A program made the position numbers and the translations under genes. This document shows positions 60,457 through 63,726 of a DNA stretch of 64,000 nt, in pieces. This DNA is from an uncultured Alphaproteobacteria bacterium (GTDB lineage Bacteria > Pseudomonadota > Alphaproteobacteria > Rhizobiales > Aestuariivirgaceae): assembly GCA_963763635.1 (NCBI GenBank), contig CAVXPO010000014.1, positions 4,123 through 68,122 of the forward strand, written 5' to 3'. The stretch's first letter is position 1, and the number at the start of each line of letters is the position of its first letter. The notes beneath the pieces were generated by a model. It ran no database searches and had not been told where the DNA came from. It worked only from the letters and a program-made list of their open reading frames with translations.

Positions 60457-62897
60457 TGCCGAGAGAAAACCTGCAGCCCGCCATGCCGCTTTATGATGCC
60501 GATTCCATCAAGGTGCTGAAGGGCCTTGATGCGGTGCGCAAAAGGCCGGGCATGTATATCGGCGACACCGACGATGGCTCGGGGCTCCACCACATGATTT
60601 ATGAGGTGGTCGATAACGGCATTGATGAAGTGCTGGCGGGCCATGCCAACCGCGTGACGGTGACCCTCAACGCCGATGGCTCCTGCACGGTCACCGACAA
60701 TGGCCGCGGCATTCCAACCGACATCCACAAGTCCGAAGGCGTGTCCGCCGCCGAAGTGATCATGACGCAGCTCCATGCCGGCGGCAAATTCGACCAGAAT
60801 TCCTACAAGGTGTCGGGCGGCCTGCATGGCGTCGGCGTCTCCGTGGTGAACGCGCTGTCAAGCTGGCTGAAGCTGACGATCTACCGCGACAATAAAATCC
60901 ACCGCATTGATTTCACCCATGGCGATGCCGATGGCCCGCTGCAAACCCTGGGCGCCGCCGGCGGCAAGCAGGGCACCGAGGTTTCCTTCCTGCCGTCGCC
61001 TGAAACCTTCACCAAGACCGAATTTGATTTCGCCACCATCGAGCATCGCCTGCGCGAACTCGCCTTCCTCAATTCCGGTGTGCGCATTTTGCTGGCCGAC
61101 CATCGCGGCGTCGAGCCCAGGGAAGTGGAACTGTTTTATGAAGGCGGCATCCAGGCCTTCGTGCGCTATTTGGACCGCACCAAGCAACCCGCCCTCAAGG
61201 ACCCCATCACCATTTTCGGCGAGAAGGATGGCCTCAGCGTTGAATGCTCCCTGTGGTGGAACGACAGCTACCATGAAAACGTGCTGTGCTTCACCAACAA
61301 CATTCCGCAGCGCGACGGCGGCACCCATTTGGCGGGCTTCCGGGGCGCGCTCACCCGCGTCATCAACACCTATGCCGCCTCCTCCGGCATCGCGAAAAAG
61401 GAAAAAGTCGCCATCACCGGTGATGATGCCCGCGAAGGCCTGACCTGCGTGCTCTCGGTGAAAGTGCCGGACCCCAAGTTTTCATCGCAGACGAAAGACA
61501 AGCTGGTGTCCTCCGAAGTGCGCCCGGTGGTTGAAGGCCTCGTCAACGAGCAATTGAGCGCGTGGTTTGAAGAGCATCCCGCCGACGCCAAAATCATTGT
61601 GAACAAGGTGGCCGAAGCCGCCGCCGCCCGCGAAGCCGCGCGCAAGGCGCGTGATTTGACCCGCCGCAAGGGCGCCCTCGATATGGCGGGCCTTCCCGGC
61701 AAGCTGGCGGAATGCCAGAACCGCGACCCCTCGCAAACCGAAATCTTCATCGTCGAAGGCGACTCGGCCGGCGGCTCCGCCAAGCAGGCGCGCAACCGCG
61801 AGAACCAGGCCGTGCTTCCCTTGCGCGGCAAAATCCTCAACGTGGAGCGCGCAAGGTTTGACAAGATGCTGTCATCGGCGGAAATCGGCACGCTGATCAC
61901 AGCGCTTGGCACCGGCATCGGCCGCGACGAGAACGGCGATGGCTTCAACATCGAAAAGCTGCGCTATCACAAGATCATCATCATGACCGACGCCGACGTG
62001 GACGGCGCCCACATCAGAACCCTGCTGCTCACCTTCTTCTACCGCCAGATGCCGGAAGTGATTGACCGCGGCTATCTCTACATCGCCCAGCCGCCGCTGT
62101 ACAAAGTGAAGCGCGGCTCGTCGGAGCAATACCTGAAGGATGGCAAGGCGCTGGAGGAATATCTGGTGGATACGGGGCTGGATGGCACCATCCTGTCGCT
62201 CGCCGATGGCAGCGAACGCGGCGGCAGCGATCTCCGCGCCATCGTCGAGGAGGCGCTGTCCACCCGCTCGGCCCTTGATGCCTTGCATTCGCGCTACCCC
62301 CGCAATGTCATTGAACAGGCAGCCATTGCCGGGGCGCTCAATCCGCTGGCGATCTCCGATTCCGAAAGGGCGGGCACGACCGCCGCCTATATCGCGCGGC
62401 GTCTCGATGTGATCTCGGAGGAAACCGAGCGCGGCTGGAAAGGCAGCGTGTCGGAGGATGGCGGCCTCGCCTTCACCCGCGAAGTGCGCGGCGTCCGGGA
62501 AAGCTGGAACATCGATGCAAAACTCATCGGCTCGTCCGATGTCTTGCGGCTCGACAAGAAGGCGGCGCATTTGCAGGAAGTCTACACCCGCCCGGCAAAA
62601 CTCCGCCGCAAGGATTCCGAAACCATCATCCACGGCCCGCTTGATCTCCTGGAAGCCATCTTCGTTGCCGCCCGCAAGGGCATCTCCATGCAGCGCTACA
62701 AGGGCTTGGGCGAAATGAACCCCGACCAGCTGTGGGAAACCACGCTCGATTCCAACGTCCGCTCGCTGCTGCGGGTGAAAGTACGCGAACTCGACGAAGC
62801 CGACGACATCTTCACCAAACTGATGGGCGACGTGGTGGAGCCGAGAAGGGATTTCATCAGGGAGAACGCGCTGAACGTGGCGAATTTGGACGTTTAA
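60456..62897 (+). CDS. gyrB: DNA gyrase subunit B
   Basis: [43 protein letters not shown] and [10 protein letters not shown]. Confidence 0.99.
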
Positions 62898-62900
62898 TTA

Positions 62901-62986
62901 ACTTTCCCTCGCCCCTATTTATAGGGGAGAGGGTTGGGGCCCGTCCTGCGAAGCTTTAGCGAAGCAGGATGGGAGGGTGAGGGGCT
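62901..62986. repeat. Palindromic repeat, family B (CCCTC.CCCC..GGGGAGAGGG..GGGAGGGTGAGGGG), copy 1
   Basis: A near-identical copy lies at about 63644-63726. Confidence 0.8.
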
Positions 62987-63010
62987 CTGCTTCACGGATG
63001 GAGGAGTATC

Positions 63011-63385
63011 ATGACCGACCTTTATCTCAGTCTTGCGCAGCTTTGTGATGCATTCAACGAGCACAACCTCGACAAGATCATGAATCATTTTGCCGAAGAT
63101 TGCGTTTTGGAAATGCCTCGCGGCAATCATCCATGGGGTTCGCGTTTTGAAGGCCGTGAAAATGTACGAAAAGGCCTTGCAGCGCGCTTCGAGGGGCTGC
63201 CGGATGTTCATTATGGGAACGGGCAGCACTTTGTCGATAACACTGCCAACACCGGTATCTCGAAATGGACGCTGACAGGAACCCGGCGTGACGGGCAACG
63301 CATCGAAGTTTGGGGTTGCGACTTCTACACATTTCAAGGAGGGAAAGTTACCCGAAAGGATTCCTACTGGAAAATCGTGGAATAG
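63011..63385 (+). CDS. NTF2-like / SnoaL-like protein
   Basis: [44 protein letters not shown], with a GGAGGAG SD. Confidence 0.88.
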
Positions 63386-63415
63386 AACCAGCTGTAGGCA
63401 CCTCATCCGCGCCAA

Positions 63416-63641
63416 CCGCAAGGGCATCTCCATGCAGCGCTACAAGGGGCTGGGCGAAATGAACCCCGAGCAGCTGTGGGAAACCACGCTGGATTCCAAC
63501 GTCCGCTCGCTGCTGCGGGTAAAAGTCTCCGAACTCGACGAAGCCGACGACATCTTCACCAAACTCATGGGCGACGTGGTGGAGCCGAGAAGGGATTTCA
63601 TCCGCGAAAACGCGCTGAACGTGGCGAACCTCGACGTCTAA
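63416..63641 (+). pseudogene. Duplicated 3' end of gyrB (last 74 codons plus stop)
   Basis: 226-bp copy of 62672-62897 with 16 mismatches by hand count. It has no start codon of its own that yields a full gene. Confidence 0.95.
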
Positions 63642-63643
63642 TC

Positions 63644-63726
63644 ACTTTCCCTCTCCCGCTTCAGCGGGGAGAGGGTTGGGGCCCGTCCTGCGAAGCGCGC
63701 TAAGGCGGATGGGAGGGTGAGGGGCT
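63644..63726. repeat. Palindromic repeat, family B, copy 2
   Basis: Follows the duplicated gyrB stop just as copy 1 follows the real stop. Confidence 0.8.

Follow-up and report, generated by a model that had tools for sequence, protein, structure and literature searches.

Phage 21 and e14 substitute the last ~165 bp of the icd gene of Escherichia coli with a version whose differences are mostly synonymous, leave the native end behind as a downstream pseudogene, and depend on an element-encoded tyrosine integrase that acts at a defined core. Arrays of cargo lying between partial 3′ ends of a target gene are also known from tycheposons and additive flexible islands, which use tRNA and tmRNA genes as targets and carry dedicated integrases. 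Here, we describe an array behind gyrB, an essential housekeeping gene, in an Aestuariivirga-like bacterium (genome G000), where displaced copies of the 3′ end of gyrB alternate with accessory genes. The array begins at the end of a stretch of 64,000 nt that was analyzed as a whole (contig C14, positions 4123-68122; hereafter the window) and continues past it. As its best explanation, and one that we consider reasonably probable, we propose a sequential displacement of the gyrB 3′ end that required no integrase.

The array shares with phage 21 and e14 the replacement of a housekeeping-gene end and the orphaning of the native one, but no integrase and no common core is seen here. It resembles tycheposons and tRNA islands in that cargo genes are separated by partial 3′ ends of the target, although the target is gyrB and, again, no integrase was seen. 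In the stacking of single-gene cassettes at a shared docking point, the most recent being the nearest to it, the array recalls an integron; however, there is no IntI, attI, or attC, and the repeated unit consists of a host gene end and a palindrome resembling repetitive extragenic palindromic (REP) sequences. Another relevant process is insertion with long target duplication, in connection with which the work of Nobusato et al. (2000) is reportedly also named. It was described for restriction-modification units, with repeats of 46 to >400 bp (Furuta, Abe and Kobayashi 2010, PMC2853133). Direct repeats built from the end of the target gene are present here as well (226 to 315 bp, and 186 bp), and further likenesses are an insert of one or a few genes, long repeats that are single-copy in genomes with an empty site, a lack of mobility genes, and an insertion that often overlaps a gene 3′ end. 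Unlike such duplications, the gyrB ends are 7% diverged in a pattern shaped by selection, would have been imported rather than copied, and form an array of several units.

Displacement of gene ends in succession is known from toxin loci. For the effector-immunity arrays of the T6SS (type VI secretion system) in Vibrio cholerae, homology-facilitated illegitimate recombination was proposed (Kirchberger et al. 2017, PMC5361080), and sequential, C-terminal displacement of rhs genes is attributed there to Jackson et al. 2009 (PMC2935791, cited via PMC5361080). Like those arrays, the gyrB locus combines a constant gene body with modules that bring their own 3′ end and a row of old, orphaned ends, and it lacks an integrase; in the rhs and T6SS loci, whole arrays are proposed to spread by homologous recombination. 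A constant gene followed by orphaned ends behind different inserts was found in G000 and in a second contig (L057), and the incoming and resident ends have separate histories here too, as judged from their substitutions, unequal branches, and raised 3′ divergence (below). In contrast, rhs and T6SS loci have variable toxin ends and cognate immunity genes as cargo, and diversity is their point. None of this holds for gyrB, an essential housekeeping gene whose apparently imported end is a synonymous replica and whose cargo (SnoaL, protease, multicopper oxidase) has nothing to do with gyrase.

A row of gyrB ends behind gyrB

The window ends in a dnaA-dnaN-recF-gyrB block, of which gyrB is the last gene. 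The last 226 bp of gyrB (tail 1, 62672-62897) recur downstream as an ungapped direct repeat with 16 mismatches (tail 2, 63416-63641), and a repeat search returned a pair of 241 nt at 91%. Thirteen codons differ between the two copies; 11 of these differences are synonymous and two are replacements (D>E at 62724, R>S at 62784). The length of the repeat, its 16 mismatches, and the two changed codons had been given in the initial annotation, made from the letters alone, and alignment confirmed them. Each repeat unit spans ~315 bp, and the two units are spaced 744 bp apart with one SnoaL_2 gene between them. Coordinates are collected in Table 1, in which the open reading frame (ORF) list of the window is the source for gyrB.

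The DNA that follows copy 2 has 46% GC, so it is AT-richer, as initially stated. The annotation had also supposed that more units may follow, and this is borne out both by a different second cargo in L057 and by a third gyrB end (tail 3), which lies 1.5 kb past the window (C14:69623-69803, window-equivalent 65501-65681). The contig extends 1.7 kb beyond the window and holds, in this order, the rest of a Trypsin_2 protease gene (cargo 2), a 127-bp inverted-repeat element, and tail 3. Tail 3 is 89% identical to copy 1 and starts 39 bp later in gyrB. It carries a 2-bp and a 1-bp deletion and an in-frame TGA; tail 2 has neither indels nor a stop. The contig ends 74 bp past tail 3, and this end overlaps no other contig.

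The boundaries of the orphans are not shared. All of their left boundaries differ (gyrB positions 62672 and 62711, the equivalent of 62471, and a fourth point in genome G335, described below), and there is no common core. The right junctions are abrupt and likewise all different, with only patchy matches of 3-5 nt. The residues HLIRAN, encoded upstream of tail 2, were considered as diverged gyrB and rejected because they match no relative's gyrB. No tRNA genes and no Rfam families were found in the array.

Table 1. Positions of the gyrB array and of other displaced gene ends (window coordinates unless a contig is named)
Feature	Position	Strand	Remarks
gyrB (813 aa)	60456..62897	+	From the ORF list; relatives' gyrB aligns over the full length; 3′ end is the docking point
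Tail 1, working gyrB end	62672..62897	+	Last 74 codons plus stop; probably imported along with the SnoaL unit (long branch; both replacements relative to the clade consensus)
Palindrome 1	62898..62986	+	Hairpin 1 (~62906-62933, terminator-like) and hairpin 2 (~62940-62973, REP-like, dispersed family)
Cargo 1, SnoaL_2/NTF2-like module	62991..63391	+	Coding sequence 63011-63385, 124 aa; Pfam SnoaL_2, E=1e-20
Cargo 1/tail 2 junction	63392..63415	+	Non-gyrB sequence; gyrB homology begins at 63411-63416
Tail 2, displaced gyrB end	63416..63641	+	Frame intact; protein identical to the clade consensus
Palindrome 2	63642..63726	+	Partner of palindrome 1; hairpin 1 stems preserved through paired changes
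Cargo 2, start of AT-rich gene for a 487-aa Trypsin_2 serine protease	63847..64000, on to window-equivalent 65310	+	Pfam Trypsin_2, E=1e-23
gyrB-end copies of G335	C24:22086-22379 and C5:5534-5827		Orphan on the second contig
sdaA-type (L-serine dehydratase-like) island	C8:56714-59273		C5-cytosine methylase (Dcm), GIY-YIG nuclease, Vsr; 105-bp direct repeats of the gene end
Response-regulator island	C25:68539/73703
glnA island	C28:178716/182006
759-aa-gene island	C28:116640/117445
555-aa-gene island	C9:18327/24398
moaB island	C21:57665/58448
DUF1150 island, 5.4 kb, in the same window	31571-31629 and 36990-37049	minus	..SAAEHELVAI.. against ..SAEEHELLAISLH and stop; displaced end with a 1-bp deletion

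Evolutionary history of the gyrB ends

The differences between tails 1 and 2 are those of coding sequences. By the Nei-Gojobori method, we counted 11 synonymous and five nonsynonymous differences (Sd=11, Nd=5; dN/dS=0.12), and under neutrality so few replacements have a probability of P=1.3e-4. The ends encode the same GyrB C-terminus, and the protein of tail 2 is exactly that of the nearest species, G032 and G035, placing both replacements on tail 1. The suggestion that both copies had evolved under selection as real gyrB ends is thus well supported. A phylogeny of 42 gyrB ends groups tail 1 with tail 2 as its sister (support 98/94), with a branch of 0.052 leading to tail 1 and one of 0.019 to tail 2, such that the working, translated copy carries three quarters of the changes. 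Had the end been duplicated in place, ~41 changes would be expected in a neutral copy 2; ~4 were seen (P=2e-13). The long branch on the working copy and this shortfall reject drift in place and indicate that one of the ends was imported, in line with the initial proposal that an imported copy displaced the other. The sequence comparison points to the working end, tail 1, as the import.

The downstream copy had been put forward as possibly the original. Its closeness to the relatives and its consensus protein agree with this, but the argument first offered, a higher share of GC-ending codons, carries negligible weight (GC at third codon positions of 0.838 vs 0.851). The decay of tail 3 would fit an older displacement. 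No recombination breakpoint was resolved inside gyrB against L050 (an ENA contig described below) and the species representatives, references that are 8-25% diverged. Separately, a contig of assembly GCA_039819445.1 (L060, positions 1-345) encodes a partial GyrB whose upstream residues look like those of a distant lineage, and which from EMNPEQLW on is nearly identical to the Aestuariivirga-type end; it could be a cross-lineage tail replacement or a chimeric contig.

The array in a sister strain

Using the junction-spanning ORF as the query, we found a protein (P0121) in which the same non-gyrB lead-in is fused to the gyrB end. It is encoded on L057, a metagenome contig of 6760 bp (JGI 3300081714). 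Along this contig lie gyrB, a palindrome, SnoaL, the junction that it shares with G000, an orphan end (B), a multicopper oxidase gene, an orphan fragment (C), a hairpin like that of palindrome 2, and a TetR gene. L057 was assembled separately, and its gyrB is 2.1% diverged from that of G000 in the 5′ part, which makes it a sister strain. G000 and L057 each have three ends and two cargo genes, of which the second differs, and an identical junction followed by another second cargo shows that the array is genuine and that its cargo varies.

The two strains also point to exchange at the gyrB end itself. They differ by 5.8% in the last 660 bp of gyrB (P=0.0013 relative to the 5′ part), yet this last part encodes the most conserved part of the protein. 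Fragment C of L057 spans 427 bp, from the equivalent of gyrB 62471 to the stop, and over its extension 9 of 190 sites differ from the gyrB of G000, compared with 13 from the gyrB of L057 itself; several of its variants are held in common with the former and not with the latter. The six tails of the two strains are visibly mosaic. Taken together, the raised 3′ divergence, the shared variants, and the mosaic tails suggest that the gyrB 3′ end has been repeatedly exchanged in this lineage.

Palindromes and cargo genes

The palindrome that follows tail 1 has a predicted fold of -48.7 kcal/mol (z=-4.1) and no Rfam match. It had been described as near-identical to the one after tail 2; each of these two gyrB copies does have its palindrome, but the identity between them (62898-62986 vs 63642-63726) is only ~84%. 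They belong to a small, dispersed family, whose other members lie on C21 and C8, with partial ones elsewhere in the genome. No palindrome follows tail 3 or tail B of L057. Both cargo modules have the REP-like hairpin 2 at their left edge.

Two other repeated elements were observed in connection with these sequences. The first, of ~0.85 kb, has ~20 copies in G000 (C21:114334-115254, C28:77255-78018, C19:1-693, and others) and also occurs downstream of gyrB in the relatives G010, G012, and G035. Its product, a 229-aa protein (MDWARAIERNSEALKG...), matches no Pfam family; the copies are 50-90% identical, many are frameshifted, and several contigs break there. Upstream of it lie a palindrome of the post-gyrB family and a GTTC-N7-GTTC motif resembling the alphaproteobacterial SOS box. 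The second is the 127-bp element just upstream of tail 3 (C14:69478-69604, window-equivalent 65356-65482), in which a 23-nt inverted repeat (TTACGGTGACACGCCACTCTATT) surrounds 81 nt, with a fold of -57.7 kcal/mol. Its core motif occurs at at least eight other sites in the genome, several of them 0.3-2 kb from members of the 229-aa ORF family.

The cargo genes are also found outside the array. The SnoaL module, of ~400 bp, occurs in three other contexts among relatives. In L050, dnaA-dnaN-recF-gyrB-hairpin-SnoaL forms a plain synteny without an orphan end, with only hairpin 1 between gyrB and SnoaL, an arrangement that would be the kind of donor needed for the first unit. In G012 (L052, 587-1153), the module has a molybdopterin oxidoreductase gene on one side and an EF-G-like gene on the other; the empty counterpart of this site in G000 (C1:14831-14929) measures only ~98 bp. 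In L051, it stands beside a LacI gene. In L141, a copy of the protease module (window-equivalent 63681-65486) with 94.5% identity occurs without gyrB ends beside it. The names given to homologues suggest the genus Aestuariivirga.

Gene-end islands elsewhere in the genome

At least seven further islands in G000 are bounded by a displaced gene 3′ end, those of sdaA, a response regulator gene, glnA, moaB, genes of 759 and 555 aa, and a DUF1150 gene (Table 1). The islands on C25, C28, C9, and C21 span 0.6-6 kb, and several of the displaced ends have amino-acid changes. The sdaA island, a restriction-modification unit, is a textbook example of insertion with long target duplication. Cargo was checked in four of the seven, with the moaB, 759-aa-gene, and DUF1150 islands outside the check, and neither a Pfam scan of the sdaA and response-regulator islands nor a reading by eye of the glnA and C9 islands revealed a tyrosine recombinase; the response-regulator island has a DDE (rve) transposase. 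The occurrence of such scars at many host genes, with no tyrosine recombinase in those checked, favors a general recombination route over an integrase specific to gyrB.

Proposed route of assembly and its alternatives

In the sequential displacement that we favor, DNA from a related lineage would enter the cell carrying a gyrB end, its terminator palindrome, and the adjoining gene. One side of this DNA would pair homologously within the highly conserved gyrB, and the far side would be joined illegitimately inside the resident gyrB end, with only those joins that leave a complete gyrB surviving. The order that results is the one observed: gyrB with the imported end, the cargo, and then the resident end as an untranslated orphan. 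Repetition would stack the orphans, with the newest beside gyrB and the oldest most decayed, in keeping with a tail 1 in use, an intact tail 2, and a decayed tail 3. Once formed, the allele would present a 0.7-2 kb insert between two homologous arms, the body and the tail of gyrB, and could pass to relatives by an ordinary RecA double crossover. Recombination from tail to tail could add, swap, or delete units, which would account for G000 and L057 having one junction in common and differing downstream. As a plausible route of delivery, we infer the encoded RcGTA-like gene transfer agent; a GTA_TIM gene of the RcGTA type is present in the genome.

No recombinase was detected by Pfam and ORF inspection in units 1 and 2 or in the L057 units. 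In the whole genome, matches to PF00589 occur only on C12, C19, C17, and C6, and none of the three intact tyrosine recombinases is on C14. The start of C6 (C6:1823-3517) holds a fragmented tyrosine recombinase together with an excisionase-like helix-turn-helix gene and a Fic-like gene. The lack of a recombinase in the array, the differing left boundaries, and the mosaic ends fit homologous or illegitimate recombination better than site-specific integration. To this extent, these data agree with the earlier idea of insertion by homologous or repeat-directed recombination, the mechanism itself being deduced from such traces.

Several points weigh against this reading. The contig stops shortly past tail 3, leaving room for a recombinase farther downstream, and the broken integrase at the start of C6 has no demonstrable link to C14. 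A homologue of the protease (84% amino-acid identity) is located on a 46% GC island in L142, a Logan contig (ERR2112547, 3426-10803), that also encodes AlpA, an AAA_25 protein, a P4-type integrase, and a RepB-type primase. This island showed neither a tRNA gene nor an obvious flanking repeat. The homologue means that an integrase-borne island could be the ancestor of unit 2. Ku was looked for in the genome and not found, which leaves no Ku/LigD end-joining route, and Ku-dependent end joining was for this reason rejected as the illegitimate step. Illegitimate events of this kind are described as rare (PMC5361080), and two or three at one gene in one lineage would be surprising.

Displaced gyrB ends are, furthermore, rare. 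None was detected in 36 genomes of the same genus screened for the gyrB end (four of which had no detectable gyrB end), no second gyrB end was present in 80 metagenomic gyrB loci (707 kb), and among ~500 genomes of the order that were screened only one other, G335, had such an end. G335 belongs to another family of the order, and its displaced end of 294 bp is 94% identical, with five amino-acid changes. The orientation of the two copies is consistent with an island of at least 27 kb, whose genes include those for an IS6 transposase, a SulP transporter, and an N-acetyltransferase; a scan of nine island ORFs revealed no tyrosine recombinase. This rarity makes the G000 array a lineage-specific hot spot within a broader phenomenon. 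Several further candidates were discarded. P0180 and P0207, short ORFs on long contigs with only PF00986, are parts of gyrB genes broken by long-read frameshift errors, and, although P0147 appeared to be chimeric, no array is present on its contig. In G010 and G031, the breaks of contigs at the tail were considered as collapsed repeats but were uninformative, as the gyrB body is missing from G010 and G031 shows a mere overlap.

The alternative that survives best, though we think it unlikely, is that the units are remnants of site-specific integrative elements of the kind that phage 21 and e14 form at icd, whose attP carried a substitute gyrB end and whose integrase was deleted, lies beyond the contig end, or acted in trans. 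The topology of foreign end, insert, and native end is exactly that of attL and attR at a gene 3′ end, unit 2 is AT-rich, and its protease has the integrase-island relative in L142; the position of the contig end, right after tail 3, and the integrase fragments on C6 also suit this explanation. However, no recombinase is encoded in unit 1 (744 bp), unit 2, the units of L057, or the G335 ORFs mentioned above, and the boundaries vary between units and genomes. In addition, the imported piece extends past the stop codon to include a chromosomal palindrome and matches the plain synteny of L050. A search of phage and plasmid collections with the GyrB end yielded only full gyrB genes or mislabelled chromosomes, with no attP-like fragment and no record of an alphaproteobacterial gyrB-end fragment. 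Finally, at least eight host genes in the genome bear such a scar, against the three intact tyrosine recombinases.

Improbable, in our view, is a dedicated cassette mechanism that opens conserved 3′ ends and copies in a replacement end with cargo, be it by a trans-acting nuclease or recombinase or by a process directed by the REP-like palindromes. The scars at many genes and the two or three events at gyrB alone would be expected of such a mechanism, as would the hairpin 2 bounding both cargo modules on the left and the recurrence of gene-sized modules (SnoaL, protease) in several contexts among close relatives. Yet the arrays have no candidate enzyme linked to them, the palindrome is missing from tail 3 and tail B of L057, and the boundaries are not conserved. 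We give very little credence to the possibility that the assembler strung together different strains' versions of the gyrB end, present in a mixed sample, to give a single artefactual contig. The assembly is a 31-contig draft with 3% contamination, and the contig stops just after the third end; nevertheless, the left flank of every orphan is unique non-gyrB sequence that no assembler could make up, identical stretches between tails reach 36 bp at most, and the separate JGI contig, from a strain 2-5% diverged, has the same SnoaL-orphan junction and a second orphan. Least credible of all is a tandem duplication of the gyrB end in place with later drift, since the direct-repeat topology and the presence of restriction-modification-type insertions in the genome would suit it, but the strongly synonymous differences, their concentration on the translated copy, and the shortfall of changes in copy 2 contradict it.

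Implications

If the sequential displacement proposed here is correct, a mode of exchange described for toxin loci, and the long target duplication described for restriction-modification units, would extend to ordinary housekeeping genes and to cargo of an ordinary, metabolic kind. Islets that lack an integrase and are flanked by fragments of core genes would also become easier to explain. G000 and L057 amount to a natural experiment, having the first unit in common, different second units, and mosaic ends, and make the recombination steps directly testable. A caution concerns the use of gyrB as a common phylogenetic marker, as its 3′ part has a separate history in this lineage.

More broadly, and tentatively, the conserved ends of housekeeping genes may serve as docking sites that need no recombinase, a form of attachment by homology. 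Cargo lying between two copies of a gene end could loop out, be transported (for example, within gene transfer agent particles), and integrate into any relative by RecA alone, building integron-like arrays behind essential genes such as gyrB; the gene-end scars would be the footprint of this general and so far undescribed route of gene flow. For gyrB, the array would mean that single accessory genes can accumulate behind an essential gene without the enzyme of a mobile element, with the gene's own end as the homology handle.

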